A stretch of DNA of 53,287 bases from Thermoanaerobaculia bacterium (lineage in GTDB: Bacteria; Acidobacteriota; Thermoanaerobaculia; Multivoradales; UBA5704). Below the pieces are notes generated by a model. That model searched no databases. It saw nothing but the letters and a program-made list of their open reading frames with translations, and was not told where the DNA came from. The stretch spans positions 1 to 53,287 of the forward strand of contig DATHUD010000712.1 in the NCBI GenBank assembly GCA_035462575.1. Reading direction: 5' to 3'. Of this stretch, positions 3,006 through 53,287 are shown one piece after another; positions within the stretch are counted from its first letter, which is position 1; each line of letters begins with the position of its first letter. A program made the translations under genes and the position numbers.

Positions 3006-3093
3006 GTCTCTTTCTCCTTTCCCGCAGCACGAAGCTGCCGTCGGCGGATACAGCCTTCCGAAGATACAGGTTTGCGAGGGGCGTGCCACCGCC

Positions 3094-3229: not shown

Positions 3230-3268
3230 CGGCGGAGCCGGGGTTTTGCCGCATACAATGTCCCCGCC

Positions 3269-6704: not shown

Positions 6705-6772
6705 GGAATCCTCCCTCTTCGATGTGCGGATGCGAGTCTATCCGCGAAGGGGGCGGACCGCCACCGGGTCCG

Positions 6773-7597: not shown

Positions 7598-7761
7598 GAC
7601 ATGCTCCCTTGCGGAGTCGTGTTTGGCGAGGATCTTATTCCGCATGGCGGGTAAAGGAAAGAGGGATGAGAGCCCCGGGTCCTTCTCCTGGACGACAGGA
7701 TAACACGGCCCCCCGGCCTCAGCCCGGAGCTGCCTAGACGCGCGGACCGCCACCGGGTCCG

Positions 7762-8559: not shown

Positions 8560-8681
8560 GACGTGGTCCCTTTCGGAGTCGTGTTTGGCGAGGATCTTAT
8601 TCCGCATGGCGGGTAAAGGAAAGAGGGATGAGAGCCCCTGGTCCTCCTCCTGGACGACAGGATAGCACGGCCACCCGGTCC

Positions 8682-12614: not shown

Positions 12615-12850
12615 ACGGGCACCTCGAATCCGGAAAAATACCGCGTTCGACCGTTCGAAAGAACCCCTGGATCAAAAAGAGGCCGGAAAGGGCAAGGGGA
12701 CCACCGGCCCGCAACCCCGTCCCGGCCTGACGACAGGCGCGGAGGTTTATCGCGGGGTGGACGGTATGGGATGGGGCTTAAGGAAGCGGTGACGGGGGTG
12801 TGGCGAGGGGGTGACAGGTGGGGAGACCGGTCCCGAAGGATGGAATCCGG

Positions 12851-12884
12851 CTGTAGGGGCGGCCCTGTGTGGCCGCCCCTACAG
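12851..12884. repeat. REP-like GC hairpin (14-bp stem, 6-nt loop); probable spy terminator
   Basis: CTGTAGGGGCGGCC-CTGTGT-GGCCGCCCCTACAG lies 22 bp beyond the spy stop. The same core GTAGGGGCGGCCCTGTGTGGCCGCCCC recurs at 27553. Confidence 0.6.
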
Positions 12885-12905
12885 GTCGTTTCCGACGGAC
12901 CCGGT

Positions 12906-13352
12906 TTACTCGTCTTCCTCGCGTCCCAGCCCGGCGGCCTCTTTCAGGGCCTCGTACTTCGCGAGTTGCTCGGGGGTGAGGATGGCCGAGAAGGCGGTGT
13001 CGAACTCCTCGTATTCGGCGCGGATCCTGTCGCCGTTCTCGTGGACGGCGAGCGCGGCCTCGCCGACCTCGCAGGCGTTCGGGCTGGCGGCATTGATCTC
13101 GGCCTGGAGTGCCTCGCGCAAGGGCTTCCTGGCCTCACGGAGAGGCTTGACGTCGGCTTCGAGGTCCTCCCGGAGCGTCTTGAAGGTCGCGACCTGGTCG
13201 GGGGTGAGCCTCAGGAAGCGGGCGAGGGCGCGCGGGTTCTTGAGGATCTGCTCCGCGTTCTGGCCTCCGCGCGGGGCGGCCTCGGCCGCGAAGGGGAGGA
13301 CGAGGAGGGCGGCGAGGGCGGTGGCGAACAGCATCAGCTTTCTTGCGTTCAT
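12906..13352 (-). CDS. Spy/CpxP-family periplasmic chaperone-like protein
   Basis: Signal peptide (MNARKLMLFATALAALLVLPFAAEA), helical and charged, with two LTxxQ motifs (LTPDQ, LTPEQ). Confidence 0.75.
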   Translation of the reverse strand: MNARKLMLFATALAALLVLPFAAEAAPRGGQNAEQILKNPRALARFLRLTPDQVATFKTLREDLEADVKPLREARKPLREALQAEINAASPNACEVGEAALAVHENGDRIRAEYEEFDTAFSAILTPEQLAKYEALKEAAGLGREEDE

Positions 13353-42462: not shown

Positions 42463-42517
42463 GGATTGGTCCGATACCTGCCTTGTTCTCATTACGGGCC
42501 GAGGCCCCGCGCCCCAG

Positions 42518-42679
42518 AACCCTCACCCCGACCCTCTCCCAGCCTCCCGGCCACCACCCGGGAGAGGGCGCCCCCGCCCAAGACGCGACATGTCACGTCT
42601 CCACCTGTTTATTCCAGCTCCCTCCTCTCCCGGCGGTGGACGGGAGGCTGGGAGAGGAGGGCCGGGGAGGTGAGGGCCC
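42518..42679. repeat. Nested-palindrome repeat element, copy 2 (subfamily B)
   Basis: Left arm AACCCTCACCCCGACCCTCTCCCAGCC, right arm GGCTGGGAGAGGAGGGCCGGGGAGGTGAGGGCCC. Inner arms CCCGGGAGAGGGCGCC and GCTCCCTCCTCTCCCGG. It is intergenic within the thiolase/crotonase operon. Confidence 0.8.
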
Positions 42680-42702: not shown

Positions 42703-43524
42703 TCAATACCCCCGGAACTCGGGCTTGCGCTTCGAGATGTAGGCGTCCAGGCCCTCCTTGGCGTCCGGGCTCTCGAAGAGCTGCTGCTGGAGCTCGCGCT
42801 CGATCGCGAGGCCGCTCTCGAACGGCACCTCCCAGCCGGACTGCACCGACCGCTTGATCCGGCCGACCGCCTTGGCCGCCTTGTTCGGCGGGCAGAACTG
42901 CTTGGCGTACTCGTGGACCTGGCCGAGGAAGTCGTCGCCGTCGAGGATCGTGTTGACGATCCCCATCCGCTGCGCCTCCTCGAAGTCGATCAGCCGGCCG
43001 GTCGCCATCAGCTCGATCGACTGGCTCTTGCCGACCCGCCGGGAGAGGCGCTGCGTGCCGCCCGTGCCGGGAAGAACGCCGAGCGTCACCTCGGGAAGGC
43101 CGACCTTGCCCGAGCCCTTCTTCGCGATCAGGATGTCCGCCGCCATGGCGATCTCCAAGCCGCCGCCCACCGTGTGCCCTTCGAGCGCCGCGATGACCAG
43201 CTTGGGCGTCTGCTCCAGGCGGTTCAGCGTCTCGTTGGCGTGCAGGCAGAAGTAGTACTTGAAGTAGGGATCGGACGACTTCAGCATATTGATGTTGGCG
43301 CCGGCGCAGAAGAACTTGTCCCCCTCGCCCTTGACCACGAGGACGTAGACGTCCTTGTCGAACCGCGCCTTCAAGATCGCCTCGTCCAACTGGCGCATCA
43401 TCTCGTGGGTGTAGGTGTTCGCCGGAGGATCTTCCAGCGTCAGGTAGGCGACGCCGTCCCTGGTCTCGTAGTGCACCAGAGTCTTCTGGGCGGTGGTCGC
43501 TTCGGCAACGGTGGTCTCAGCCAT
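42703..43524 (-). CDS. Enoyl-CoA hydratase/isomerase (crotonase) family protein
   Basis: 273 aa. FFCAGANI, GHTVGGGLEIAMAAD and LPEVTLGVLPGTGGTQRL motifs. GAGGAG SD before the ATG at 43522-43524. Confidence 0.85.
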   Translation of the reverse strand: MAETTVAEATTAQKTLVHYETRDGVAYLTLEDPPANTYTHEMMRQLDEAILKARFDKDVYVLVVKGEGDKFFCAGANINMLKSSDPYFKYYFCLHANETLNRLEQTPKLVIAALEGHTVGGGLEIAMAADILIAKKGSGKVGLPEVTLGVLPGTGGTQRLSRRVGKSQSIELMATGRLIDFEEAQRMGIVNTILDGDDFLGQVHEYAKQFCPPNKAAKAVGRIKRSVQSGWEVPFESGLAIERELQQQLFESPDAKEGLDAYISKRKPEFRGY

Positions 43525-43626
43525 ATCGTTCTCCTCTCGTCGGATTTGAGGGATGGGTTCCGGGGCGCGCCGCCCGGGCGGGACTCGCGGCGTATTCTCC
43601 CACGAGACGGGAGGAGCGTCCACCAG

Positions 43627-43760
43627 GGGCCCTCACCACCCCGGCCCTCCTCTCCCATCGCCCCCCCAACCCCCGGGAGAGGAGGGAGACTGCTGCCCGA
43701 GAGGGAGGGGGCGCCCTCTCCCGGAGGTTGGGGGGGCGATGGGAGAGGGTCGGGGTGAGG
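43627..43760. repeat. Nested-palindrome repeat element, copy 3 (subfamily B, inverted relative to copies 2 and 4)
   Basis: GGGCCCTCACCACCCCGGCCCTCCTCTCCCATCGCCC...GGGCGATGGGAGAGGGTCGGGGTGAGG. It matches the reverse complement of copy 4 arm for arm. Confidence 0.8.
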
Positions 43761-43819
43761 TTTCGGGGCGGGGGCTGCAGTCCGATAAAGTAGAGCCGGG
43801 ACACCGAAAGGAGCTCCTC

Positions 43820-44617
43820 ATGAACCCTCGCCGTCTCGCCTTCCTCGCCGCCGTCTTCCTGCTGACCGTTCCACCGGCCGGGGCGGAGACGCCGGTCATC
43901 AGAATTCTCGCGGCCTATACCCCGGCGGCCGGATCCGGCGAGAGGCTCGGCAAGGCGGTGGAGGAGACCAATCTCCGCTTCGAGAAGCTCGGGGTGACGC
44001 CGCGCCTGGAGCTCGCCCACGCCGTCCCGGTGGACTACGAGGAGGCCCGGACCCGCGATCCCCTCGGAACCGACCTCGAACGCCTCCACGGGAAGACCGA
44101 CGGCTACCTGTACGAGCTCCACGCCCTCCGCGACGCCTACGAGGCGGACCTCCTCGTCCTCCTGGTCGGAGACGCCGCGAACGACCGGGACTGCGGCCGG
44201 GTCCACGACGCCTTCCTCGTCCTCGAAGCCGGCTGCGCGGACGCCCCCGGCACCCTCACCCGCCAGCTCGCGCTCCTGGCCGGCATCCCCGAAGACGATC
44301 CCGCCGCCTGGAACGCCCAGGGCGAAATCCTCGCCCGCTTCCGCTCCCCCGTCGCCGTGACGCTTACCTGCGACGGCCGGGGCCCCCGCTTCGACTGCCA
44401 CGCCGCCGCCGAGGGAGGCAGCGGCCCCTACCTCTACCAATGGAGCTTCCGCGGAGAGGGGACGCTTACCGCCGAAGGCACCCACGCCGGGATCGCCATG
44501 GCCCCGGACTGCGACGCGGAGGACGCGGCGCCGTTCGTCTGGGTCACTGTGAAGGACGCCACGACGGCGACGACCTACGCGTCGCGTTCTCTGGGATGCT
44601 GGGCGGAAGCCCACTGA
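43820..44617 (+). CDS. Secreted reprolysin/M12B-like protein lacking the HExxH zinc site, with a C-terminal PKD/Ig-like segment
   Basis: AAAGGAG SD and a signal peptide (LAFLAAVFLLTVPPAGA). IRILAAYTPAAG...AYEADLLVLLVGD...DCG resembles Reprolysin_4/5-type metallopeptidase N-halves. The expected HExxGH position reads TLTRQLALLAG. GGSGPYLYQWSF resembles a PKD-like repeat. The family call is by eye only. Confidence 0.5.
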   Translation: MNPRRLAFLAAVFLLTVPPAGAETPVIRILAAYTPAAGSGERLGKAVEETNLRFEKLGVTPRLELAHAVPVDYEEARTRDPLGTDLERLHGKTDGYLYELHALRDAYEADLLVLLVGDAANDRDCGRVHDAFLVLEAGCADAPGTLTRQLALLAGIPEDDPAAWNAQGEILARFRSPVAVTLTCDGRGPRFDCHAAAEGGSGPYLYQWSFRGEGTLTAEGTHAGIAMAPDCDAEDAAPFVWVTVKDATTATTYASRSLGCWAEAH

Positions 44618-44636
44618 ACCAGCTCATCTGCGCGGC

Positions 44637-44843
44637 AAAACCCACTGGGTCTGCGGGAAAACCCACTGGGTTTTCGGCAGAACCCACTGGGTTTTCGGGA
44701 AAATCCACTGGGTTTTTGGCAGAACCCACTGGGTTTTCGGCGGAACCCAGTGGGTTTTTGGCAAAACCCACTGGGTTTTTGGCAGAACCCACTGGATCTG
44801 CGCCAGATCCACTCCGTTTCGGAACGGAATCCAAGTGGATTCC
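44637..44843. repeat. Tandem array of 21-bp units, each containing a 17-bp palindrome (consensus ARAACCCACTGGGTTTTYGGC)
   Basis: The CCCACTGGG core occurs at 44641, 44662, 44683, 44704, 44725, 44746, 44767 and 44788, in exact 21-bp steps. Two degenerate palindromic units follow. No stop codon occurs in any frame across the array. Confidence 0.9.
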
Positions 44844-45024
44844 GGGACAGGAGCACCGGTTTGGGCGCCGGAGGAGTTGGTTTCTGTCGCCGTCAGGAGC
44901 GGATCTGGCTCGGAAATGCTGGCTTGGGAGGACCCGGAGTCGGTGATTCGAACGGGAGATGGGCGAGATCTTGCTAAACTCTCGGTAGTTTCCCCGACCG
45001 TTTCGAGCTGCCAGGAGGCCGACC

Positions 45025-47991
45025 TTGGACCCTTCCGCTCTCTCCGACCTCGTCGCCCAACTCGTCCAGACCCTCGGACCCTACCTGCCGGCTCTTCTTG
45101 AAACGGGGAAGACCGTCGGAGGCAAGGCCGTGGAGGAGGTCGGAAAGAAGGCCGGCGGCGAGGCGTTCGATGGGGCGAAGAAGGTCTGGAAGAAGCTGCG
45201 GGGGAAGGTGGAGGAGAAGCCGGAGGCGGCCGAGGCGGTCCGCGACCTCGCCGAGGACCCGGACGATTCGGATCTCCAGGCGGCGGTTCGGGTCCAGCTC
45301 AAGAAGATCCTCGCCGCGGATCCCAGCCTTGTCGGGGAGATGGCGAAGCTTCTCCAGACCGTGGAGATCCACGGTTCTGGGAACGCAGTCGCGCAGGTCC
45401 GAGGCTCTCAGAACGTCGTCGCTCAAGGCAGCGGAAACACGGCGGGTGGGGCAGGTTCGTACGTCGCAGGGCGCGACTTCCACTTTCACACCGACTTCGG
45501 AAAGGCCGATAAAGACTCTCTCCGCAAGACCTATCTCTCCTGGGTGATGGAGCAGACGGGATACTTGGCCCTGTCGGGGGTGGACCCGGCCGTCAAGGCA
45601 AGCGACCGGGAGGCGCGGTTGAGCCTGGAAGCGGTCTATACAGACCTGCGGACTAACTCTTTTCGTCAAGAAGGAAATTTTTGGAGGTTGTTATCGGCGC
45701 TCGAGCAGCTCAACGAGCACCCCCGCTTGGTACTGCTCGGCGCACCCGGCAGTGGCAAGAGCACGTTCGTCAACGTCTTGGCTCTTTGCATGGCCGGGGA
45801 ATTATTGGGCTCCCAGGCTACCAATCTGGCTCTTTTGACGTTCCCTCTCCTGAGGAAACGCCAAGGGGAAGAGAAGGAGCCCCAGCCCTGGGATCATGGT
45901 CCGCTCTTTCCCGTGCGCGTCGTTCTCCGGGATTTCGCCGCCACTGGCCTGCCCCTTCCGGCCATCTCGGCCACCGCCCGGCACCTTTGGGATTTCATTG
46001 AGTCAACTCTTAAGGATTCGGGTGTCGCGGAGTGCTTCCCTCTCGTGAAGAAAACCCTTCAGGAGAAGGGCGGCCTGATTCTCCTCGATGGCCTTGATGA
46101 GGTCCCTGAGGCGGAGACCCGGCGGGAGCAGATCCGGCAGGCCGTTGAGAGCTTCGTGAGTGGTCTTGGGAAGAGCTGTCGTATCCTTCTCACGAGTCGC
46201 ACCTACGCCTATAAAAATCAGGATTGGGCTCTTCGCGGCTTCAAAGACGCGGAGCTTGCTCCTTTCGATTCCGTCCAGATCCGCCACTTCGTCTCCCGCT
46301 GGTATTCCCACATGGCCGCCCTGGGGAGGGTGAAGGCGGAAGAGGCCGAGGGCCGGGCTGTGCGGCTTGAGCAGGCGATTTTCAATAGCGAGCGCCTAAG
46401 GGGGTTGGCTGGGCGTCCCCTCCTCCTGACGCTCATGGCAAGCCTTCACGCGTGGCGGGGGGGGAGCCTGCCTGAGCACCGGGAGGAGTTGTATGCCAAT
46501 GCCGTCGAGTTGCTCCTCGACTCCTGGGAGCGCCAGCGGCTGCGGGTCAACGCCATGGGCGAGTATGAACTCCTCCAGCCGAGCCTCGCAGAGTGGCTCA
46601 AGGTGGATCAGCAAAAAGTCCGGCAGATCCTGGACGAACTGGCCTTCGAAATCCACAACGCCCAGGCGGATTCGGAGGGCACGGCCGACCTCCCGGAGGA
46701 GAAGCTGGTAGCTCGCCTCCTGAGCGTCAGCCGGAGCCCGGAAGCAAACCCCCTTCAACTCATCGATTTTCTCAGCCAACGTTCCGGCCTGCTAGAGGCG
46801 AGAGGCGTGGGAATCTACTCGTTTCCTCACCGGACCTTTCAGGAGTACCTCGCCGCCTGCCATCTTACGGGTGAGTCCTTCCCAAAGCAGGTGGCGGATC
46901 TGGGACGGTCCGGTCTAGGCCGTTGGCGCGAGGTGGTTCTGCTTGCCGGAGCCAAGGCTGCTCGAGGCTCCACTGCGAGCGTCTGGCAACTCGTGGAGGC
47001 CCTCTGCTGGCGGGAGGCGGACGATACTGCGGGTGATCTCGCGGACGCCTGGGGGGCTCACCTCGCCGGACAGGTGGTCGTCGAGTCCGCGAACCTCGCC
47101 GAGATCGCCGAGTGGAACCGCTCGAAGCTGGAGCGCCTCCGACGCTGGGTGGTGCGTCTGTTGCGGGACGAGAGGCTCCCAGCGGTCGAGCGAGCTCTGG
47201 TGGGAGACAGCCTGGCTCGGATTGGAGATCCACGGACCGAGGTGATGACGGTGGACGGGATGGAGTTTTGCGAGGTACCAGTAGGGAAGTTCTGGATGGG
47301 GAGCGTAGAGGTGGACTGGGAGGCTGATGGGAATGAGAAGCCCCTGCATGAGGTGGAGATCCCGTATACGTTCCGGATCGGCCGTTTTCCTGTCACCGTG
47401 GCGCAGTTTCGCGAGGCCGTTGAGACGGGCGGCGTCAATCTAAAGGGTCCTGGGGGTCTCAGCCAACCCGCAAACCGTCCGGTGACTCGAGTGAGCTGGC
47501 ATGAGGCTCAGGAGTTTTGTGTTTGGTTGACGCGGAAGTGGTGCAGGGAGGGGCGGATCGGGGTGGATTGGGAGGTGCGCCTTCCTACGGAGGCGGAGTG
47601 GGAGAAAGCGGCGAGAGGAATGGACTGCCGGCTGTATCCGTGGGGTTATAAGTTTGAGGCGGAGCGCGCCAACGCTTCTGAGACCGGGGTCGGCCGGCCT
47701 AGCGCAGTAGGGTGTTTTCCTGGCGGAGCTAGCCCTTTCAAGTGCGAGGAGATGAGCGGGAACGTCCGGGAGTGGACTCTGAGTCTTGTGGAAGAGTATC
47801 CGTATCGTTTCAGGGATCGCCTAGAAGTTTTTGAAGAGTATTCGGACAGGATAATGGTGCTACGTGGTGGCTCGCTCTTCAATGAATCCAAGCTCGTGCG
47901 GTGTGCCTGCCGCTTCAGAGACGTCCCGGACTTCCGGGAGGACGACATAGGATTCCGGGTCGTTGTTGCCCCATTCTCCTTTGAGCTCTGA
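45025..47991 (+). CDS. STAND NTPase: N-terminal helical module + NACHT domain + C-terminal FGE/SUMF1-like domain
   Basis: 988 aa. TTG start with AGGAGG 6 nt upstream. Walker A GAPGSGKST (aa 239-247), Walker B LILLDGLDEV (aa 351-360), FPHRTFQEYLAA. C-terminal RVSWHEAQEFCVWL, RLPTEAEWEKAARG, GNVREWT, LRGGS and DIGFRVV are typical of the FGE-sulfatase fold. It is visibly less GC-rich than the neighbouring genes. Confidence 0.9.
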   Translation: MDPSALSDLVAQLVQTLGPYLPALLETGKTVGGKAVEEVGKKAGGEAFDGAKKVWKKLRGKVEEKPEAAEAVRDLAEDPDDSDLQAAVRVQLKKILAADPSLVGEMAKLLQTVEIHGSGNAVAQVRGSQNVVAQGSGNTAGGAGSYVAGRDFHFHTDFGKADKDSLRKTYLSWVMEQTGYLALSGVDPAVKASDREARLSLEAVYTDLRTNSFRQEGNFWRLLSALEQLNEHPRLVLLGAPGSGKSTFVNVLALCMAGELLGSQATNLALLTFPLLRKRQGEEKEPQPWDHGPLFPVRVVLRDFAATGLPLPAISATARHLWDFIESTLKDSGVAECFPLVKKTLQEKGGLILLDGLDEVPEAETRREQIRQAVESFVSGLGKSCRILLTSRTYAYKNQDWALRGFKDAELAPFDSVQIRHFVSRWYSHMAALGRVKAEEAEGRAVRLEQAIFNSERLRGLAGRPLLLTLMASLHAWRGGSLPEHREELYANAVELLLDSWERQRLRVNAMGEYELLQPSLAEWLKVDQQKVRQILDELAFEIHNAQADSEGTADLPEEKLVARLLSVSRSPEANPLQLIDFLSQRSGLLEARGVGIYSFPHRTFQEYLAACHLTGESFPKQVADLGRSGLGRWREVVLLAGAKAARGSTASVWQLVEALCWREADDTAGDLADAWGAHLAGQVVVESANLAEIAEWNRSKLERLRRWVVRLLRDERLPAVERALVGDSLARIGDPRTEVMTVDGMEFCEVPVGKFWMGSVEVDWEADGNEKPLHEVEIPYTFRIGRFPVTVAQFREAVETGGVNLKGPGGLSQPANRPVTRVSWHEAQEFCVWLTRKWCREGRIGVDWEVRLPTEAEWEKAARGMDCRLYPWGYKFEAERANASETGVGRPSAVGCFPGGASPFKCEEMSGNVREWTLSLVEEYPYRFRDRLEVFEEYSDRIMVLRGGSLFNESKLVRCACRFRDVPDFREDDIGFRVVVAPFSFEL

Positions 47992-48023
47992 ACCCTCTGA
48001 CCTCTGAATCTCTGGACGGAGGG

Positions 48024-48049
48024 CCAGAGGGGGGCTTGCCCCCCTCTGG
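48024..48049 (+). terminator. GC hairpin downstream of the NACHT gene (11-bp stem, 4-nt loop)
   Basis: CCAGAGGGGGG-CTTG-CCCCCCTCTGG lies 33 nt after the stop. No U-tract follows, so terminator function is not certain. Confidence 0.5.
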
Positions 48050-48060
48050 GGCGGTGCGAA

Positions 48061-48206
48061 ACCTCACCCCGACCCTCTCCCATCGCCCTCCCTTCCTCCG
48101 GGAGAGGGCGCCCCCACCCTCCTCTGCGGGATAAGACCTCCTATCGTCTCCCTCCTCTCCCGGGGGGCGGGAGGGCGATGGGAGAGGAGGGCCGGGGAGG
48201 TGAGGT
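48061..48206. repeat. Nested-palindrome repeat element, copy 4 (subfamily B)
   Basis: ACCTCACCCCGACCCTCTCCCATCGCCCTCC...GGGAGGGCGATGGGAGAGGAGGGCCGGGGAGGTGAGGT. Inner arms CCGGGAGAGGGCGCC and TCTCCCTCCTCTCCCGG. Confidence 0.8.
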
Positions 48207-48266
48207 CCGGGCGGGCGGGGCGGCCGCAATCTGGCAAAGTAGACTCAAAGGCCCGGACATTTTGAT

Positions 48267-48285
48267 GACAAGATGATATCTTGTC
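48267..48285. promoter_or_regulatory. 8-3-8 dyad GACAAGAT-GAT-ATCTTGTC upstream of the Rpn-like gene (possible operator)
   Basis: Perfect palindrome in a locally AT-richer patch about 60 nt upstream of the ATG at 48343. No convincing -35/-10 pair could be assigned. Confidence 0.35.
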
Positions 48286-48342
48286 GCGCATTCCGGAACC
48301 TGAGCCCCGGTTGGGAGCGGGGCTCCAAGGGGAACGCCGCCC

Positions 48343-49251
48343 ATGCCCTCGATGGCCCACGAGATCCAGGTGGATCTCTTCAAGAACCGTCCGTCCCTCG
48401 CCGCCGAGATCCTGGCGGAGGTGCTGGACGTCCCGCTTCCGCCCTACAGCGAAGCGCGCCTCGCCTCGACCGACTTGACGGAGATTCAGCCGGCGGAATA
48501 CCGCGCCGACGCCGTCGTCGTCCTTTTCGAGCACGACGCCCCGGTCCGGGTGATCATCGTGGAGGTTCAGCTCGCGGCCGATCCCGGAAAGCGCCTGAGC
48601 TGGCCCGCGTACGTGACGGTCTCCCGCGCGATCCATAGATGCCCGGCGGATCTGCTCGTTGTCGCACCCGAGCCAGCCGTCGCCGGCTGGTGCGCGGAAG
48701 GGATCGAGATCGGCGTCCCCGGTTTCATCCTGCACCCGCCGGTGCTGCGCCGCACCGCCGTTCCGGTCGTGACGGACCCCGCGGAAGCGGCCCGCCGGCC
48801 CGAGCTCGGGGTGCTCTCCGCGATCGCCCACGGCGAGACTGGTGAGGGGGCGACAATCGCTGCCGCGGTACTTCCCGCGGTCCGGGAACTCGACGGTGAC
48901 AGGGCCAAGTTCTACTACGACCTTGTAGACAATTCCCTCAATCAGGCCGCTCGCCGGTCGCTGGAGGTGATGATGAAGGGCTACGAATATCAGAGTGATT
49001 TTGCGAAGAGGTATGTCGCGGAGGGGCGTGCTGAGGGTTGGGTCGAGGGGCGTGCCGAAGGGCGAGTCGAGGGGCGTGCGGAGGGGACGGCTCAAGCCGT
49101 GCTGACCGTGCTTCAGGCTCGCGGCATTACTGTACCGGACGCGGTCCGTGAGCGCATCCTGGCCCAGACAGACCCGGAGCGGCTGAAGCGCTGGCTGGAA
49201 AGGGCGGCCGTTGCCAAGTCGGTCGACTCGGTCTTTGACAAGCCGAACTGA
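48343..49251 (+). CDS. Rpn/YhgA-like PD-(D/E)xK nuclease-family protein with DUF4351-like C-terminus
   Basis: 302 aa. YRADAVVVL...VIIVEVQL is the D...E-x-Q/K nuclease core context. The C-terminal (A/V)EGR x4 repeat followed by VLTVLQARGITVPDAVRERILAQTDPERLKRWLERA is the DUF4351 pattern. The family call is by eye. Confidence 0.65.
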   Translation: MPSMAHEIQVDLFKNRPSLAAEILAEVLDVPLPPYSEARLASTDLTEIQPAEYRADAVVVLFEHDAPVRVIIVEVQLAADPGKRLSWPAYVTVSRAIHRCPADLLVVAPEPAVAGWCAEGIEIGVPGFILHPPVLRRTAVPVVTDPAEAARRPELGVLSAIAHGETGEGATIAAAVLPAVRELDGDRAKFYYDLVDNSLNQAARRSLEVMMKGYEYQSDFAKRYVAEGRAEGWVEGRAEGRVEGRAEGTAQAVLTVLQARGITVPDAVRERILAQTDPERLKRWLERAAVAKSVDSVFDKPN

Positions 49252-49280
49252 GGGGGGCCCCTACCATCGGGCTGAAGCTG

Positions 49281-49838
49281 TCAGAATCCGGACTCGAGAA
49301 CCCTCTTCCAAAGCGCAGAGCACCTCTCCGGCAATCGGGGAAGCTCCCTTTCGACCACCTCGATCAGCCTCTCCCGGTCCGGCCCTTCCAGAACCTGCAG
49401 AATGTCCCAGGCATCCTGGGGGCCTCCGGCGTAGAGCTTGAGGAGGATCAGGTCGGCAGGGCCGAGGATGGGCAGCTCCAGATCGGCGTAGCTCCTCAGG
49501 GGAGCGCGCTCGATCATCTCCCTCTGCCAGGTGAACTTGCCAATGACAAGGTCAACGGGCGGCTGGCCGGGGGTCTCGAACCGGGCAACGCCGGCCAGGG
49601 GATCGGTCAGGTCGCCCTTGGTGATCTCCACGTCCACACCTTGAGCATTGAGATCCGTCCAGGTCTGCCGGTCGAGGCAGGCGGGATCGAGGGCCATCAG
49701 GTCCGCGTCCAGGGTAGTGCGGTTCAATCCGTGGACGGCCATGGCCGACGCCCCGATCAGGGCGTGGGGAATCCCGCGCTTCCTGAGAACCCCGACGACC
49801 TGTTCGAGGAGTTTCAGCCGATGATCTCCGTCATGCAT
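49281..49838 (-). CDS. Nucleotidyltransferase-fold protein (minimal NTase, toxin-like)
   Basis: 185 aa. LIGASAMAVHGLNRTTLDADL gives the G[SA]...DxD NTase signature. The start overlaps the 3' end of a small upstream ORF by 25 bp. Confidence 0.65.
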   Translation of the reverse strand: MHDGDHRLKLLEQVVGVLRKRGIPHALIGASAMAVHGLNRTTLDADLMALDPACLDRQTWTDLNAQGVDVEITKGDLTDPLAGVARFETPGQPPVDLVIGKFTWQREMIERAPLRSYADLELPILGPADLILLKLYAGGPQDAWDILQVLEGPDRERLIEVVERELPRLPERCSALWKRVLESGF

Positions 49839-50035
49839 TTGGACGGGGTGCGGCCAGCCTGCCGCCGGCGCTGTAGGAGGCGGATCGCGGTTCGCCGGTC
49901 CACGCCTTGCGCCTGGCGGAAGGCTTCGAGGCCGATCTCGGCCATTTCCAGGGAACGGCGAATGCGTTCCTCCAGAGGGAGGGCGAGGAAGGCTTCCCGG
50001 TCCTTCTTCCTGAGATCGTCCGCCACGGAGCGCAT
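49814..50035 (-). CDS. Small helical protein, putative cognate antitoxin/regulator of the NTase
   Basis: 73 aa (MRSVADDLRKKDREAFLALPLEERIRRSLEMAEIGLEAFRQAQGVDRRTAIRLLQRRRQAGR...). It overlaps the NTase gene in a typical TA arrangement. The weak point is that AGGAGG sits 16 nt from the ATG. Confidence 0.5.
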   Translation of the reverse strand: MRSVADDLRKKDREAFLALPLEERIRRSLEMAEIGLEAFRQAQGVDRRTAIRLLQRRRQAGRTPSKCMTEIIG

Positions 50036-50061
50036 GGCCAAAGTATAGCCGCCTCCTACTC

Positions 50062-50466
50062 CTACTCCGGCTCCTCCTGCCTCGCCTGGAGCAGGAAACC
50101 GGTGATGGCGCCGCTCTGGTCGATGCCCCAGCGGATGGTGAACGGCGTGGGCGCTTTCGCGAAGCGGGCGGTCCGGATGTAGAGCCGGGTGGAGGCGCCG
50201 GGCGTCACCGTTTCGTCCAGGATGGCGGTCTCGGCCCCCGCGCTGTTCACGAAGTCCTTGCGGAGGTCGGCGAGGTCCCGGGCGCTTCCGATCGCCTCCC
50301 GCATCGGCATGGAGAAAAGGTCCCAGATCTTGGCGGTCTCGCCCGCGTAGAGCCACTCCGTGTACCGGCGCCCGGCCTCCAGAGCATCGACCGGCGCGGG
50401 GGGCTGGGCCTGGACCGGGAGGGCGAGGAGGATTGCAAGGAGGGCGGCGGTCCGGAGGGTTCGCAT
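50062..50466 (-). CDS. Hypothetical secreted protein
   Basis: 134 aa with a signal peptide (MRTLRTAALLAILLALPVQAQ). The remainder of the 342-aa track ORF runs through repeat copy 5 and antisense to padR. Confidence 0.6.
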   Translation of the reverse strand: MRTLRTAALLAILLALPVQAQPPAPVDALEAGRRYTEWLYAGETAKIWDLFSMPMREAIGSARDLADLRKDFVNSAGAETAILDETVTPGASTRLYIRTARFAKAPTPFTIRWGIDQSGAITGFLLQARQEEPE

Positions 50467-50497
50467 GGTGGAGGGAGTATAGCCGGGCGTTCCGCCC

Positions 50498-50634
50498 GGG
50501 CCCTCACCCCAACCCTCTCCCAGCCCCCTCCCATCCTTCCGGGAGAGGGAGCCTCTGCAACAGCAAAATCCCCATAAGGGCTCCCTCTCCCGGTCGGGGG
50601 ACGGGAGGCTGGGAGAGGGTTGGGGTGAGGGCCC
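50498..50634. repeat. Nested-palindrome repeat element, copy 5 (subfamily A)
   Basis: Outer arms GGGCCCTCACCCCAACCCTCTCCCAGCC and GGCTGGGAGAGGGTTGGGGTGAGGGCCC are perfectly complementary. Inner arms CCGGGAGAGGGAGCC and GGCTCCCTCTCCCGG. Confidence 0.9.
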
Positions 50635-50671
50635 GGGCCGAAGGCCCGGTGCGATCTCCCGCTTGAAGCAT

Positions 50672-50728
50672 TCCCCTTGACACCTTAGGGGAATCCGCCC
50701 TATCCTTTCCCCTGGACATCTTAGGGGA
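50672..50728 (+). promoter_or_regulatory. padR promoter with two copies of dyad TCCCCT-N9-AGGGGA (putative PadR operators)
   Basis: TCCCCTTGACACCTTAGGGGA (50672-50692) embeds the -35 TTGACA (50677-50682). TATCCT lies at 50701-50706, 18 nt downstream. The second dyad TCCCCTGGACATCTTAGGGGA (50708-50728) covers the predicted start site and SD. Confidence 0.6.
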
Positions 50729-50736
50729 GAGTCGCA

Positions 50737-51069
50737 ATGGCCAAGATGGATCTTCTGCAGGGCACTCTGGACGTCCTCATCTTGAAGGCGCTCTCGTGGG
50801 GACCGCTCCACGGGTACGCGGTGGTCCGCTGGATCTCGCAGCGGACGGAAGACGCGCTCCGGATCGAGGAGGGGGCGCTCTATCCGGCGCTTCACCGGAT
50901 GGAGGAGCGGGGGTGGATCGAGGCGGAGTGGGGGGTGTCGGAGAACAAGCGGCGGGCGAAGTTCTACCGGCTGACGGAGCTCGGGCGGCGCCAGCTCTCC
51001 TCCGAGTCGGAATCCTGGCAGCGCTACGCGGACGCGGTGGGGCGCGTGCTCCAGGCCGCGACGGCCTGA
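50737..51069 (+). CDS. PadR-family transcriptional regulator
   Basis: 110 aa. LDVLILKALSWGPLHGYAV...EEGALYPALHRMEERGWI...KFYRLTELG. Confidence 0.9.
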   Translation: MAKMDLLQGTLDVLILKALSWGPLHGYAVVRWISQRTEDALRIEEGALYPALHRMEERGWIEAEWGVSENKRRAKFYRLTELGRRQLSSESESWQRYADAVGRVLQAATA

Positions 51070-51088
51070 CCGGAAAGGGACGAACGCC

Positions 51089-53287
51089 ATGGCATCCTGG
51101 GGACGCAGCTTCCGGCTTCACCTGAAGGGCGGCACGGTCGAGCGGGACGTGGACGAGGAGGTCGCGTTCCACATCGAGACCAAGATCGAGGAGCTCATCG
51201 AGGAGGGGATGGCTCCCTCGGCCGCCCGCGAGGAGGCCCTCCGCAGCTTCGGGGACGTGGAGGGGATCAAGCGGTCGTGCCGCGAGATCAGCCACCGCCG
51301 GCAGCGGGGGCGGCGGCGGACGGAGGTGTTCGGCGAGCTCTGGCAGGACGCGGTCTTTGCCGTGCGGCAGCTCCGGAAGACCCCGGGCTTCACCCTGGTC
51401 GCCATCCTCACGCTGGCGCTGGGGATCGGCGCCACGACCGCCATCTTCGGCGGCCTCTATGGAGTGGTGCTGCGGCCCCTTCCGATCCCCCACGCCGAGC
51501 GGCTGGTCTATCTGTGGACAGTCCAGCAGGGAAGCGAGATCTCGGTCTCGCCCGGCAGCTTCCGGCGGTATGAGGAGCGGCTGCGGTCGCTCGAAGACCT
51601 CGCGGCGGCGGCGAACGCCGGGTTCACCCTGACCGGCGGCGAGGTTCCGGAGATGGTCGTGGGCTCCCGCGTGACCTCCCGGTATTTCGACGCCTTCGGC
51701 GTGCGGCCGGCCCTCGGACGGATGTTTTCAGCGGCCGAGGACCGCCCCGGCCGCGAGCGGGTGGTGGTGCTCTCGAACCGCCTCTGGCGGGGGAAGCTCG
51801 GCGCCGACCGCGGCATCGTGGGGCGGAGCATCCCGTTGAACGGCCTCCCCCACACCGTGGTCGGGGTGATGCCCGCGGACTTCGACCAGGCGGAGAGGGC
51901 CCAGCTCTGGGTGCCGCTCGCGCTCACGGCCGAGGACGACACGAACTACGGCCATCGCTACCTCCGCGTGGTGGGCCGGCTGGCTCCGGGCGTTCCGATG
52001 GAGCGGGCGCAGACGGAAGCAGAGGCGATGTCGCGCCAGCTCGAGGAGGTCTCTCCCCAGTTCAACAAGGGGGCCGGGGCCGTGCTGGAGCCCTGGCTGG
52101 ACGGTCTGCTCGGAAGCTTGAAGCAGCGGCTCGTGATCCTTCTGGGCGCGGTCTTCTGCGTGCTCCTGATCGCGTGCGTGAACGTGGCCAACCTGCTGCT
52201 GGCGCGGGGCGCGGCCCGCTCGCGGGAGATCGCCATCCGCGCCTCCCTGGGTGCCGGGCGCGGGCGGATCGTCCGCCAGCTCCTCACCGAAAACCTGGTC
52301 CTGGGCCTCGCCGGCGCGTTGGCGGGCCTCGGGCTCGCGTACGGAATCCTGAAAGGGATCGTGGCCGCGGCCCCCGCGACGATTCCGCGCCTCGATCAGG
52401 TGCGGCTGGACGCGCCGGTGCTCGCCTTCGCCCTGGCGCTCGGGCTCGCGGCGAGCCTGCTCTTCGGGCTCGTCCCCGCGTTCCGGGTGGCGCGGCCGGA
52501 CCTCCAGACCATGCTCAAGGAGGGCGGGCGGAGCTTCGGCACGGGGGGGCCGCGCGACCGCGTCCGCTCCGGGCTCATGGTGGCCGAGGTGGCGCTCGCC
52601 CTCGTGCTCCTGGCGGGCGCCGGCCTTCTCCTGCGCAGCGCGGTGCACCTGGGGCAGGTGGAGCTCGGGTTCGATCCGTCCCGCCTGCTCACGGCGCGGC
52701 TGCTGCTCCACGGCTCCGGAGAGGGCACCGAGGAGAGGGCCGTCCGCACGTTCGAGCGGGCGGTGGAGGAGGTGGGGCGCGTGCCGGGGATCGAGGCGGT
52801 CGCCGGAGCCTCGCTCCTCCCGCTGTCGAGCTCCAATTCGTCCTCGTCCACGGCGATCGAGACCCGCCCCCTGCCGCCCGAGGAGAAGATGAACGCCAAC
52901 CACCGGCTGGTCACGCCCGGCTACTTCCGGACGCTCTCCGTCCCCGTCCTCGCCGGGCGGGACTTCGGCCCCGCCGACCGCGAGGGGGCCTTGCCGGTGG
53001 TCGTCGTCAACCAGACCCTCGCCCGCCAGGCGTGGCCCGGGGAGAGCGCCCTCGGGAAGAGGCTCTCCATGTGGTCGAACGAGGAAGCGCCGGTCTGGCT
53101 CGAGGTCGTGGGCGTCGTGGGGGACATCCGCCAGGGCCAGCTCAGTCAGGACGTGCGGCCCGAGGTCTACTTCCCCCTGGCGCAGGTCCCGCCCTTCCTG
53201 TGGGACGACGAGGACATCACCTTCGCCCTGGTGGCCCGCACGGAAGGCGATCCGGCCGGGCAGGCGGACGGCGTGCGCAAGGCCGTG
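51089..53287 (+). CDS. ADOP-type duplicated MacB-like ABC permease (permease-prefix + MacB_PCD + FtsX), 3'-truncated by the window end
   Basis: Not in the ORF track because no stop is reached. My translation from ATG 51089 begins MASWGRSFRLHLKGGTVERDVDEEVAFHIETKIEELIEEGMAPSAAREEALRSFGDVEGIKRS...AVRQLRKTPGFTLVAILTLALGIGATTAIF. It continues through an FtsX region (VNVANLLLARGAARSREIAIRASLGAGRGRIV) and a second periplasmic domain, open to 53287 (733 codons). Confidence 0.85.
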   Translation, partial: MASWGRSFRLHLKGGTVERDVDEEVAFHIETKIEELIEEGMAPSAAREEALRSFGDVEGIKRSCREISHRRQRGRRRTEVFGELWQDAVFAVRQLRKTPGFTLVAILTLALGIGATTAIFGGLYGVVLRPLPIPHAERLVYLWTVQQGSEISVSPGSFRRYEERLRSLEDLAAAANAGFTLTGGEVPEMVVGSRVTSRYFDAFGVRPALGRMFSAAEDRPGRERVVVLSNRLWRGKLGADRGIVGRSIPLNGLPHTVVGVMPADFDQAERAQLWVPLALTAEDDTNYGHRYLRVVGRLAPGVPMERAQTEAEAMSRQLEEVSPQFNKGAGAVLEPWLDGLLGSLKQRLVILLGAVFCVLLIACVNVANLLLARGAARSREIAIRASLGAGRGRIVRQLLTENLVLGLAGALAGLGLAYGILKGIVAAAPATIPRLDQVRLDAPVLAFALALGLAASLLFGLVPAFRVARPDLQTMLKEGGRSFGTGGPRDRVRSGLMVAEVALALVLLAGAGLLLRSAVHLGQVELGFDPSRLLTARLLLHGSGEGTEERAVRTFERAVEEVGRVPGIEAVAGASLLPLSSSNSSSSTAIETRPLPPEEKMNANHRLVTPGYFRTLSVPVLAGRDFGPADREGALPVVVVNQTLARQAWPGESALGKRLSMWSNEEAPVWLEVVGVVGDIRQGQLSQDVRPEVYFPLAQVPPFLWDDEDITFALVARTEGDPAGQADGVRKAV

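Follow-up and report, generated by a model that had tools for sequence, protein, structure and literature searches.

The locus described here raises the question of how a bacterial NACHT protein could act when it ends in an FGE-sulfatase-like domain and when no known effector domain is recognised in it by Pfam, PADLOC or NCBIfam. The gene lies in a window of 53,287 nucleotides, the whole stretch of DNA that was analysed, from a Thermoanaerobaculia (Acidobacteriota) chromosome, and we lean towards reading the 988-aa product as an NLR-like, all-in-one STAND-FGS conflict sensor. An earlier sequence-only reading had described it as an undescribed system with no recognisable effector. The latter statement holds for the three resources named above and fails once homologues of aa 1-160 are examined, as these display a Bell-like domain with a short motif. 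The former has to be given up, because STAND-FGS sensors, with or without DGRs, were already described (Kaur 2021, PMC8195603; Kibby 2022, 10.1101/2022.07.19.500537, under 'antigen-receptor-type' bacterial NACHT proteins) and can also be found in Dore 2024 (PMC10907252) and, as FGE-sulfatase sensors, in a 2026 STAND survey (PMC13581612). Novelty is modest since both STAND-FGS sensors and Bell/BASS signalling have been published; the parts of the protein (Bell-like domain, amyloid-type motif, NACHT, FGE) are of known kinds and their combination is undescribed.

The gene and its NTPase core

The features of the locus are collected in Table 1. As had been noticed from the sequence, the gene starts at TTG behind an AGGAGG, and the TTG is found at the same position in orthologues P0005 and P0007; a protein identical to the product is present in a public metagenome (P0001). 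The gene is also less GC-rich than its flanks (62.3% G+C vs 70.5% in the upstream operon, 72.1% in the downstream genes and 69.0% in the whole window), with GC3 of 0.74 vs about 0.9 in the neighbours. All motifs quoted in the earlier reading were found at the residues claimed.

Table 1. Features of the NACHT-FGE locus (window coordinates)
Feature	Position	Strand	Remarks
REP-like palindromic element, about 140 nt	43627..43768		left bound of variable segment; repeat families I2, I3, D5-D8
Tandem array, 7.8 copies of 21-bp unit CGGCAGAACCCACTGGGTTTT	44633..44795		TRF score 228-256
Shine-Dalgarno AGGAGG	45011..45016	+	six bases ahead of TTG; read directly from sequence
CDS, 988 aa	45025..47991	+	TTG start; Bell-like domain, amyloid-type motif, NACHT, FGE-like sensor
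Six-helix N-terminal domain, aa 1-113	45025..45363	+	M-D-P start; proposed Bell-like membrane-targeting executioner
G/S/N/V/A/Q-rich strand repeats ending in AGSYVAGRDFHFH, aa 114-160	45364..45504	+	proposed amyloid-signalling (BASS1-like) motif
Pre-NACHT segment, aa 161-234	45505..45726	+	LRxAYL...LALSGVDP...LSLDAVYT; kept in all family members
NACHT NTPase core, aa 235-429	45727..46311	+	Pfam PF05729
Helical and winged-helix STAND arm, aa 430-745	46312..47259	+	contains FPHRTFQEYLAA His motif
FGE-sulfatase / C-type-lectin-fold domain, aa 748-980	47266..47964	+	Pfam PF03781; without FGE catalytic cysteines
DGR variable region (VR) equivalent, aa 945-981	47857..47967	+	scaffold RGGS..VRCAxR..P..R..GFRVV, hypervariable positions within
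Conserved 3' end and downstream non-coding element	47968..48049	+	CCCCATTCTCCTTTGAGCTCTGA, CTCTGA repeats, hairpin; resembles DGR IMH and target-recognition hairpin
REP-like palindromic element	48057..48208		right bound; 92-94% complementary to 43627-43768 copy; I2, I3

The assignment as a NACHT STAND NTPase with a C-terminal FGE domain was confirmed by Pfam, with NACHT at 43 bits (E 5.8e-11, cut-off 26.7) and FGE-sulfatase at 143.9 bits (E 9.2e-42, cut-off 23.3). The other search that had been proposed, PADLOC, gave no model match to the 988-aa protein beyond the P-loop, and the NCBIfam EruA model reached 26 bits vs a cut-off of 1000. In 40 homologues K245 of Walker A (GAPGSGKST, aa 239-247), D355/D358/E359 of Walker B (LILLDGLDEV, aa 351-360) and sensor-1 R392 are invariant, and so are H602-Y608 of the winged-helix His motif (aa 600-611) and the pre-NACHT columns R167, L171, L183, Y205 and T206. 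When aa 1-235 were compared by BLAST with 120 homologues, all aligned from about aa 161 on. The STAND arm is the best-conserved stretch (0.96 identity among close homologues), and over the NACHT region divergence amounts to 0.39-0.44 at third codon positions vs 0.10-0.16 at first and second positions, a pattern indicative of purifying selection.

The C-terminal sensor and its variable region

The FGE-fold motifs are RVSWHEAQEFCVWL (aa 822-835), RLPTEAEWEKAARG (852-865), GNVREWT (912-918), LRGGS (946-950) and DIGFRVV (974-980), and relatives in the PDB are matched at 1e-11 to 1e-22, the best solved one being the FGE-like domain of ToxD (7spq, 2e-22). FGE (SUMF1) and EgtB/OvoA/PvdO belong to the same fold family; the catalytic loop of human FGE, verified as GGSYMCHRSYCYRYRCAAR, reads GGSLFNESKLVRCACR here, 3 residues shorter and devoid of both copper-binding catalytic cysteines, and the DinB domain of EgtB is absent. 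In relatives the region is hypermutated, which a fixed active site would not tolerate. The domain is best read as a non-catalytic ligand sensor, and the loss of the cysteines together with a DGR-type hypervariability of the C-terminal 37 residues supports this role, which had been suggested before.

These residues align with both the VR and the TR of a related locus (L006), where all VR/TR mismatches fall at TR adenines. They are hypervariable among orthologues, and in comparison with L009 and L012 first- and second-position changes in VR codons equal or exceed third-position ones while silent changes stay below the gene average. Relatives are diversified by DGRs, and 28 of the 94 family loci carry RT and/or bAvd (Avd); in the window TR, RT and Avd are all absent, and no DGR lies within 5 kb of any of ten Bell-fused loci. 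The non-coding element behind the gene, with CTCTGA repeats picked up by TRF and a perfect hairpin (48024-48049, 11-bp stem, CTTG loop), is near-identical in L009-L012, L059, L083 and the DGR-bearing L006, whose proteins are just 59-76% identical.

The missing DGR parts, in the window and around the Bell-fused loci alike, would suit a decaying remnant, a fused gene once targeted by a DGR whose function has been lost, and so would the lowered G+C and GC3 and the third bases changed in 3 of the 9 codons for which the L006 TR has AAC (AAT, GAA and GAG here). It is nevertheless very improbable that the gene is such a relic: its 988-codon frame is intact with all NTPase catalytic residues, the ribosome-binding site is strong, the codon pattern over NACHT is that of purifying selection, the non-coding IMH/hairpin element is conserved and at least four genomes have kept an orthologue in this position.

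The N-terminal domain and the strand motif

The short N-terminal helical module that had been predicted is real in the AF2 model built from a 101-sequence alignment (pLDDT 90.1, pTM 0.81), with helices at residues 3-28, 33-43, 45-64, 66-77, 82-98 and 100-112, the first having the highest mean Kyte-Doolittle hydropathy of the six (+0.63). The structure prediction called for earlier thus gave a confident model, and the fold search gave nothing significant in PDB or BFVD (best E 1.6-1.8, TM at most 0.33 in PDB), so the model does not establish kinship in fold with Babybell, HeLo or MLKL. The domain family comprises 2584 clusters and is met with chiefly in standalone proteins of ~140 aa; its members are mostly 130-165 aa long with the domain beginning at residue 1, and 115 of the 149 top representatives do not exceed 200 aa. 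In hhalign, aa 79-155 matched Streptomyces Bell-BASS1 proteins at 91.4% probability (E 9e-7), a match spanning just the final two helices and the motif; the profile set includes P0290 (database name STRTUCAR8_03302, S. turgidiscabies Car8), which we equated with ELP64852.1 (Dyrka's Table S2) because organism, length and motif position agree. The M-D-P start fits the acidic-residue N-terminal signature of Bell, HeLo-like and Babybell domains (10.1101/2020.01.06.895854; 10.1101/2024.11.07.622273), and starts of the M-[DE]-P type are also known from bNACHT02/11/23 and Avast2 (10.1101/2024.11.07.622273). Judged by its profiles and its gene arrangement, the family appears to behave like, and to be related to, the published Bell/BASS amyloid-signalling executioners.

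The strand repeats behind the helices (GSGNAVAQ 117-124, GSQNVVAQ 127-134, GSGNTAGG 135-142) are modelled as disordered (pLDDT about 32), and hhalign pairs AGRDFHFH of this segment with AGRDQHIT of BASS1. The BASS1 HMM scored the 988-aa protein at noise level (1.9 bits) and its close homologues at 10.5 bits at most, and the motif strings (GSGAxAQ...AGxGG.A.GRD.H) are not in Dyrka's list of 346 pairs (BASS1-10). The standalone homologues carry a C-terminal G/N/Q/V-rich motif that is repeated by the N-termini of adjoining STAND genes, which follow 3-41 nt after each of P0122-P0124. Within the NACHT-FGE family Bell-like genes adjoin receptors in about 15 loci, the gaps in tight collinear pairs range from -14 to +89 nt, and in 5/5 tight pairs the standalone tail resembles the receptor N-terminus at z = 9-15 against shuffles; L008 and L006 offer further examples. 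The relatives seem to split the pathway between a motif-NACHT-FGE receptor and a Bell-like-motif executioner of ~145 aa, which are fused here, and a single gene uniting Bell-like executioner, BASS1-like motif, NACHT and FGE-like sensor is rather the likeliest account.

The module had been regarded as either an adaptor or a new effector. The data favour an effector, and not a new one in view of its large standalone family. It is unlikely that the helical domain is an effector-associated or Death-like adaptor which recruits a separate enzymatic effector homotypically, leaving the protein without killing activity of its own. Such a role would be in keeping with the six helices, as in Death-fold adaptors, with a fold search that matched no known pore-forming helical domain, with EAD-type or exchangeable N-termini in other family members (PF19960, PF20229, PF13271) and with STAND-FGS proteins whose EADs pair with effector-fused copies (Kaur 2021, PMC8195603). 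However, no Pfam EAD or bDLD model matches the domain, an enzyme-fused copy of it is absent among the top matches and the 94 loci, the partners are coupled by the shared strand motif and not by the helical domain, and the standalone partners consist of domain and short motif alone, so the two-gene systems offer no other effector moiety.

Proposed mechanism and known systems

We suppose, with somewhat better than even confidence, that the protein works as an all-in-one NLR with a Bell-like executioner, an amyloid-type motif, NACHT and an FGE sensor. The non-catalytic FGE/C-type-lectin domain would bind an invader-derived or non-self ligand by the surface encoded in its hypervariable C-terminal region, and the ligand would license nucleotide exchange and oligomerisation of NACHT. 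The motifs gathered in this way would adopt a cross-beta (amyloid-type) fold, freeing the hydrophobic helix 1 of the Bell-like domain to attack the membrane, so that the cell would be killed or arrested (abortive infection); from ligand binding to the choice between phage defence and kin discrimination, these steps are inferred. For Bab/Agp, experiments showed that a Bell-type domain bearing an amyloid motif executes abortive infection (10.1101/2024.11.07.622273), and no experiment has been made on any STAND protein with a CLec/FGS sensor (PMC10907252).

STAND-FGS systems have the same layout, with an effector or adaptor at the N-terminus followed by NACHT and one FGS domain at the C-terminus, and the same VR scaffold. 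They are often DGR-diversified, whereas this copy and the other Bell-fused ones have no DGR nearby, and the Bell-like module is not found among the effectors and EADs of those papers; many such N-terminal extensions were called uncharacterised by Dore et al. (PMC10907252). Bell/BASS pairs (Dyrka 2020, 10.1101/2020.01.06.895854) and Bab/Agp of E. coli (Ibarlosa 2024, 10.1101/2024.11.07.622273) share with the present family a helical domain of ~105 aa at the extreme N-terminus, the acidic residue at position 2 and proteins of ~140 aa ending in a strand motif that is repeated at the adjoining STAND N-terminus. In contrast to them, executioner, motif and receptor form one polypeptide here, the sensor is FGS instead of TPR or WD, and the host belongs to Acidobacteriota, not to Actinobacteria or Cyanobacteria. 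Bell-NLR fusions are rare (10.1101/2020.01.06.895854), and no description of the motif retained within one was found in the literature. Validated NACHT/Avs proteins (bNACHT01/02/11/23, Avs1-5, EruA) have the NACHT NTPase core in common and differ in sensor type. The logic is that of fungal HET-S/NWD2 and HeLo-NLR, where the NLR nucleates an amyloid motif and a membrane-targeting domain of the N-terminal-helix type is switched on, and the order of helical domain and motif is that of HET-S; homology of the N-terminal domain to HeLo is not detectable in sequence or structure. The fungal all-in-one HeLo-NLR forms are not known to carry an amyloid motif, whereas here it is kept in the protein.

Genomic neighbourhood

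The gene is syntenic across four related genomes. Next to it lies an operon of the fatty-acid/kynurenine type, and the segment around the gene differs from genome to genome, with toxin-antitoxin genes and a transposase among its contents. Conservation of a housekeeping kind, which had been named as an argument against a conflict role, is only superficial: the gene evolves fast at its syntenic site, with 71-73% protein identity to the positional orthologues vs 87-95% for flanking genes. The 'nuclease' (48343-49251) and NTase (49281-49838) genes beside it, previously taken for partners, are not conserved as such: three positionally orthologous loci have other sets of genes downstream, with toxin-antitoxin genes, a transposase or just the 302-aa ORF.

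Vertical retention on the chromosome, the lack of any phage, prophage or defence genes found near the locus and the mosaic similarity of orthologues (Bell part closest to L010/L011, FGE part to L012/L009) would also agree with a self/non-self (kin, allorecognition) or other signalling NLR whose variable lectin domain reads a polymorphic cellular ligand, like the fungal HET NLRs. The architecture is an exact analogue of the NWD2/HET-S incompatibility pair, and kin recognition was raised for DGR-diversified STAND sensors (Dore 2024, PMC10907252). A role other than anti-phage is still improbable, as Bab/Agp, the sole Bell-type/amyloid system tested, and the bacterial NACHT proteins that have been tested are anti-phage (10.1101/2024.11.07.622273; 10.1101/2022.07.19.500537), and all domains are predicted to be cytoplasmic, with neither a signal peptide nor a transmembrane segment, a location from which the ligands of other cells are less accessible; such a role would moreover alter the trigger only and leave the mechanism of the all-in-one receptor unchanged.

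The upstream repeat array reported earlier is present, 230 bp ahead of the start codon. Its units contain the palindrome AACCCA-C-TGGGTT and are rated as terminator-like hairpins whichever strand is read, and arrays of the same period and unrelated sequence lie upstream of orthologous and related genes; the array is possibly regulatory or insulating. REP-like palindromic elements occur five times in the window.

The gene and its NACHT core

The open reading frame at 45025-47991 (+) is real: it begins with TTG, carries AGGAGG six bases 5' of the start and encodes 988 aa. All motifs listed in the sequence-only reading were found at the residues which it gave, and its description of the sequence proved accurate, including the lower G+C content (62.3% for the gene in a 69% window; GC3 0.74 vs about 0.9 in neighbouring genes). 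Both proposed domains were confirmed by Pfam, with NACHT (PF05729) at aa 235-429 (43.0 bits, gathering cut-off 26.7) and FGE-sulfatase (PF03781) at aa 748-980 (143.9 bits, cut-off 23.3), the second match covering nearly the whole domain (profile positions 5-254 of 255). Walker A K245, Walker B D355/D358/E359, sensor-1 R392 and winged-helix H602 are all present and invariant among 40 homologues. The gene was not assigned to any catalogued defence system: PADLOC-DB v2 and the NCBIfam antiphage models gave no system-specific match, only similarity at the P-loop level (mad8 and PtuA in PADLOC, both E > 0.004), and the NCBIfam EruA model was far below threshold (26 bits, cut-off 1000).

More than 3200 database proteins match the 988-aa protein. 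The best 120 of these all combine NACHT and FGE (47-76% identity), and their named members come from Thermoanaerobaculia metagenome-assembled genomes. Among species-representative genomes full-length relatives were seen only in Thermoanaerobaculia and Holophagales.

A Bell-like domain at the N-terminus

When aa 1-235 were compared with these 120 proteins by BLAST, aa 161-235 proved common to all of them, aa 123-160 with the G-S-x-N repeats to many homologues devoid of the first 115 residues, and aa 1-115 to about 32. The first 113 residues were modelled as six helices forming an all-helical bundle, in which helix 1 has the highest hydropathy; the protein begins M-D-P-S-A-L, with D2 at least 90% conserved. 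A profile of this region, searched against 1.84 billion representatives, retrieved 2584 clusters at E <= 1e-3. Among the best 149 of them, 115 are proteins of at most 200 aa in which residue 1 already belongs to the domain; five are of at least 700 aa.

This large family escapes the usual resources. Pfam gave no match for aa 1-235 or for 24 N-terminal homologues apart from weak beta-solenoid-family matches on the repeat region, and the N-terminal family profile met only chance matches among PDB sequences (TAL repeats, E > 0.2). In Foldseek searches neither a first, low-confidence model (pLDDT 62) against the PDB nor a pLDDT-90 model against the PDB (best E 1.8, TM <= 0.33) and BFVD gave a significant match. 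The pLDDT-90 model thus showed no likeness in the PDB to HeLo, MLKL or CC domains, and Foldseek gave none to Babybell 9H9V, whose presence in the searched PDB set is unconfirmed. Large topological variation has been described among Bell domains, the N-terminal helical cell-death domains of bacteria (10.1101/2024.11.07.622273).

A database search with aa 1-160 retrieved three proteins of 140-153 aa (P0122-P0124) composed of the helical domain and a G/N/Q/V-rich tail. The survey of gene neighbourhoods which had been proposed for the N-terminal module placed each of them 3-41 nt 5' of a P-loop gene on the same strand, and the N-terminus of this P-loop protein repeats the tail in all three cases (for example VVGNQNQVIGQVSGGT vs VTGDRNQVIGQMFGGT). 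Of these partners, that of locus L001 was read over its full length; it is of NB-ARC type and has TPR repeats. The same logic defines the Bell/BASS pairs of Dyrka 2020 (10.1101/2020.01.06.895854), in which the executioner tail shares a bacterial amyloid signalling sequence (BASS) with the N-terminus of the adjacent NLR.

Bell and Babybell executioners have an N-terminal helical domain of about 80-105 aa and are mainly proteins of ~120-160 aa. Several of their features are found here as well: an extreme N-terminal location, an acidic residue at position 2, a hydrophobic first helix and a standalone and gene-pair context. Thirteen Streptomyces proteins bearing BASS1 aligned with the N-terminal family in hhalign (91.4%, E 9e-7), the alignment spanning only aa 79-155, that is helices 5-6 and the motif (AGRDFHFH with AGRDQHIT). 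Since the proteins retrieved with the BASS1 peptide were short or truncated C-terminal halves, the comparison was limited to this half of the domain. One of the Streptomyces proteins, P0290 (database name STRTUCAR8_03302, S. turgidiscabies Car8), agrees in organism, length and motif position with ELP64852.1 in Table S2 of Dyrka and was taken to be that protein. The same table served to build a BASS1 HMM, which matches the AGRDxHI core only; it scores 1.9 bits here, which is noise level, and up to 10.5 bits in close homologues (shuffled maximum 3.5). A string search did not find the motif among the 346 pairs of Dyrka's supplementary list (BASS1-10). Residues 114-165 are disordered in the AF2 model (pLDDT about 32), which is compatible with an amyloid motif and is not evidence for it. 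Judged from sequence comparison, homology to Bell proteins is probable over the half of the domain that could be aligned, and aa 1-113 may be described as a Bell-like domain of divergent sequence, followed by a motif of BASS1-like type.

The helical module had been proposed to be either a new effector or an adaptor recruiting one. The effector role gained support from the Bell-like features and the executioner-type context; its novelty did not hold, as the module belongs to a family of 2584 clusters. An adaptor role is disfavoured because the standalone partners contain no other part which could act.

Putative executioner and receptor pairs within the NACHT-FGE family

The same arrangement recurs in the family of the gene itself. 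Ninety-four loci with 101 complete-looking NACHT-FGE reading frames were examined. Ten frames are fused to a Bell-like domain, 21 have a motif-only N-terminus (in most of them GSGAxAQ within the first ~60 residues) and 70 have other N-termini, so that about 30% of receptors in this Acidobacteriota family use a Bell-like executioner. A separate executioner gene is usually found near the motif-only receptors, and about 15 of the 94 loci have a standalone Bell-like gene in adjacent position. In five loci (L078, L084, L117, L126 and L135) such a gene lies less than 100 nt 5' of the NACHT-FGE gene, and in all five tail and receptor N-terminus resemble each other with z = 9-15 vs shuffles. At L008 a 158-aa Bell-like protein (10434-10910) ends in VTGSGAIAQGRGAVSAGAGGVAVGGDVHG, and the next gene, a split NACHT gene, begins VDGSGAIAQNRSVAGGAGATVVGRDLHFY. 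Altogether, matching motif pairs were found at L001-L004, L006, L008 and the five tight loci.

The protein under study carries IHGSGNAVAQVRGSQNVVAQGSGNTAGGAGSYVAGRDFHFH between its helical domain and its NACHT module. The simplest reading of this sequence is that executioner and receptor became fused head to tail, the motif being kept and expanded.

Tandem NACHT-FGE paralogues are common on one contig, frequently with differing N-termini, which fits a lineage-specific expansion of the receptor family.

The proposed lectin-fold sensor and its possible diversification

The earlier proposal that the FGE-like domain is the sensor was strengthened. Among solved structures, aa 737-988 come closest to the FGE-like domain of ToxD (2e-22), followed by EgtB, OvsA, PorK and SUMF1/2. 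In human FGE the catalytic loop GGSYMCHRSYCYRYRCAAR, checked in PDB 2aii/1y1e, has the form GGS-x2-C-x4-C-xRYR with C336 and C341. The equivalent loop here, GGSLFNESKLVRCACR, aligned by anchoring on RCA[AC]R...PD...GFR, is 3 aa shorter and has neither cysteine, and in relatives this loop and the residues that follow are the variable region (VR) rewritten by a diversity-generating retroelement (DGR).

Locus L006 shows this directly: the homologue gene (protein P0017, 59% identity) is followed by bAvd and reverse transcriptase (RT) genes, and its VR (10552-10683) is 89% identical to the template repeat (TR, 11204-11335), with all mismatches at TR adenines. RT and/or bAvd occur in 28 of the 94 loci. 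[quoted passage not shown] Nine AAC codons of the L006 TR correspond here to AAT, GAA, CTC, TTC, GAC, GTC, TTC, GAG and GAC, and these positions are hypervariable in close homologues within a constant scaffold (RGGS..VRCAxR..P..R..GFRVV). Over aa 945-981 (47857-47967) differences at first and second codon positions equal or exceed those at third positions, and in comparison with L009 and L012 silent changes fall short of the average for the gene; in the NACHT region the codon-position pattern is reversed, as is typical of purifying selection. Decay of the gene is disfavoured because of this selection and of the intact motifs.

The L006 locus also carries a gene for a 146-aa Bell-like executioner (12595-13035) directly 3' of the RT. 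Its tail (HGSGAVAQGKGNVVAGKGGIAAGRD) corresponds to the N-terminal sequence of the DGR target (HGSGALAQGNGNVVAGQKAIAAGRD), and receptor, DGR and executioner therefore form one cassette at this locus.

No DGR was detected in the 53-kb window: neither a search for repeats, nor BLAST of the 3' end against the window itself, nor tblastn using RT and bAvd of L006 revealed a repeat of 47792-47991 or a TR, RT or bAvd; likewise none of the ten Bell-fused loci has a DGR within 5 kb. The last 24 coding bases and the non-coding DNA 3' of the stop (47968-48049) are nonetheless near-identical in orthologues and in DGR-bearing L006, although the proteins of the loci keeping this element are only 59-76% identical. 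Recognition of a DGR target involves an IMH-like boundary at the 3' end of the VR, followed downstream by a hairpin that is GC-rich and has a 4-nt loop. The conserved element, which ends in CTCTGA repeats and a perfect hairpin, resembles such an IMH plus hairpin; alternatively it could be a terminator. On the first reading the element suggests diversification in trans: the gene may be targeted from a distance by a DGR in another part of the genome.

Relation to known systems and proposed mechanism

The locus had been put forward as the most plausible undescribed system of the window. This is not tenable for the sensor: STAND-FGS proteins, with the FGE-sulfatase/C-type-lectin fold (FGS) as sensor, exchangeable N-terminal effectors and DGRs close by or at other genomic sites, are already explicit in Kaur 2021 (PMC8195603) and Kibby 2022 (10.1101/2022.07.19.500537), and likewise in Dore 2024 (PMC10907252) and Fig. 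1c of PMC13581612. Bell/BASS signalling together with rare Bell-NLR fusions was reported by Dyrka 2020, and Bab/Agp, one such Bell-type system, is an abortive-infection defence (Ibarlosa 2024, 10.1101/2024.11.07.622273). Bell/BASS has so far been linked with TPR/WD-type NLRs, mainly of Actinobacteria and Cyanobacteria, whereas here a Bell/BASS-like module accompanies an FGS-type putative sensor in Acidobacteriota; the N-terminal extensions of DGR-diversified STAND-FGS proteins are largely uncharacterised (Dore 2024). As far as could be found, neither literature describes the coupling of both systems, the motif itself, its retention in a fusion or the occurrence in Acidobacteriota.

By analogy with the NLR, HET-S/NWD2 and Bab/Agp paradigms, on which every dynamic step is modelled, the parts and their comparative evidence can be arranged as follows. 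The lectin-fold domain would bind a ligand through its VR surface, upon which the NACHT module would undergo nucleotide exchange and oligomerisation. Clustered motifs might then nucleate a cross-beta fold, and this would free helix 1 of the Bell-like bundle for an attack on the membrane. That the receptor serves kin recognition instead of phage sensing is less likely. A more far-reaching reading, regarded as rather doubtful, is that the gene stands for a grade of bacterial NLR not yet described, with one polypeptide uniting a lectin-fold sensor still rewritten by a DGR in trans (with the IMH/hairpin as handle), a BASS1-like motif converting naive copies in a prion-like manner and so amplifying the signal across receptors, and a Bell-type pore former in cis, with expression gated by the family-specific 21-bp array.

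The coupling joins two bodies of work, on DGR-diversified STAND-FGS antigen sensors and on Bell/BASS amyloid signalling, and offers hypervariable lectin-type NLRs an output mechanism that is concrete and open to test. Being compact and encoded by a single gene, the fused form lends itself to asking whether an amyloid motif acts in cis and whether VR residues can be reprogrammed to new ligands. Annotation gains a profile for the helical domain (2584 clusters), which is missed by Pfam, PADLOC and NCBIfam.

Repeat arrays and genomic setting

A tandem array with a 21-bp period lies upstream of the gene (7.8 copies), of its positional orthologues and of other family members. These arrays are located 70-420 bp 5' of the gene and reach 18.7 copies in L006 and a maximum of 23 copies across loci; they accompany seven of the ten Bell-fused genes. 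Of 23 period-21 arrays counted in 814 kb, 11 are located in the upstream windows, which comprise 8.7% of the sequence; this is an enrichment of about 5-fold. Unit sequences are unrelated between loci, even orthologous ones, and have G+C below that of the genome. In the window each unit resembles a bidirectional terminator hairpin. A sigma-70 promoter scan found nothing.

The variable segment, which comprises the NACHT gene, the gene for the secreted protein and the array, is bracketed by two copies of a palindromic element in inverted orientation (92-94% complementary). An Rfam scan of 43500-50800 returned only sub-threshold miRNA-hairpin look-alikes on the palindromic elements.

Repeats, elements and variable genes at the locus and in homologue loci (L numbers)
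Feature	Position	Remarks
21-bp (or 41-42-bp) arrays	Window 44633-44795; L006 7401-7814; L009 7715-7920; L010 7510-7629; L011 6850-7036; L065 4540-4831; L083 17-190; L089 4464-4541; L058 8192-8698	5' of NACHT-FGE genes or beside Bell-like partner genes
REP- or MITE-like G+C-rich palindromic intergenic element	3092-3236; 42513-42679; 43627-43768; 48057-48208; 50483-50649	~140 nt, five copies
CTCTGA repeats and perfect hairpin	48024-48049 (hairpin)	11-bp stem, CTTG loop: CCAGAGGGGGG-CTTG-CCCCCCTCTGG
Secreted protein	Between conserved flanks; 43820-44617 (+)	In window
Reprolysin-domain protein	Between conserved flanks	In L010
PIN or MazE toxin-antitoxin genes	Between conserved flanks	Varies by genome
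Transposase_31 gene	Between conserved flanks	Varies by genome
302-aa ORF (orf302)	Between conserved flanks; 48343-49251 (+)	Window and L009 only
Tandem NACHT-FGE paralogues	L008 7227-13536; also L018, L069, L077, L078, L087, L090, L098, L107, L112, L113, L122, L124, L126, L131

The window is chromosomal, containing DNA polymerase I, glycine dehydrogenase and a thiolase/enoyl-CoA hydratase/kynureninase cluster. Three close homologues (P0005-P0007) occupy the same genomic position, each after the ECH-thiolase operon, and PadR-MacB genes follow downstream in L011 as in the window. Between positional orthologues the flanking proteins are 87-95% identical vs only 71-73% for the NACHT protein. Content between the conserved flanks varies by genome, so the flanking "nuclease" and "NTase", earlier suspected as partners of the system, are not conserved ones. 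The first, orf302, is 82% identical to a gene at the same position in L009; it has no Pfam match, bears a weak likeness (1e-5) to the C-terminal part of a Transposase_31 (Rpn/YhgA-like) protein from L011 and was judged PD-(D/E)xK-like from a D...EVQ motif. It also contains a repeated AEGR(V/A)EGR stretch encoded by a 12/24-bp tandem repeat at 49021-49086. The NTase gene (49281-49838, -) is DUF2204-like below the Pfam threshold (19.5 vs 20.3 bits) and is not syntenic.

The secreted protein has 265 aa, an apparent signal peptide (MNPRRLAFLAAVFLLTVPPAGA) and no family match; it is missing from orthologous loci, where other genes take its position, for example that of the Reprolysin-domain protein (757 aa). 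A 342-aa reading frame (50062-51090, -) runs antisense across the PadR gene (50737-51069, +) and is probably a remnant or a mis-call, because part of it resembles DNA at the Peptidase_M23 gene of L009.

The protein resembles its relatives in a mosaic fashion. In the Bell-like part L010/L011 come nearest (81-82% aa identity) and L009/L012 reach only 67%, and the FGE part is closest to L012 (73%), then L009 (67%), a pattern which suggests recombination between alleles or paralogues. Elsewhere in the window a tandem duplication of ~962 bp (6753-8700, 71-92% identity) carries Uma2-family (putative restriction endonuclease-like) genes, and more repeats with a 21-bp period lie in or beside them (6845-6953 and 7839-7922).
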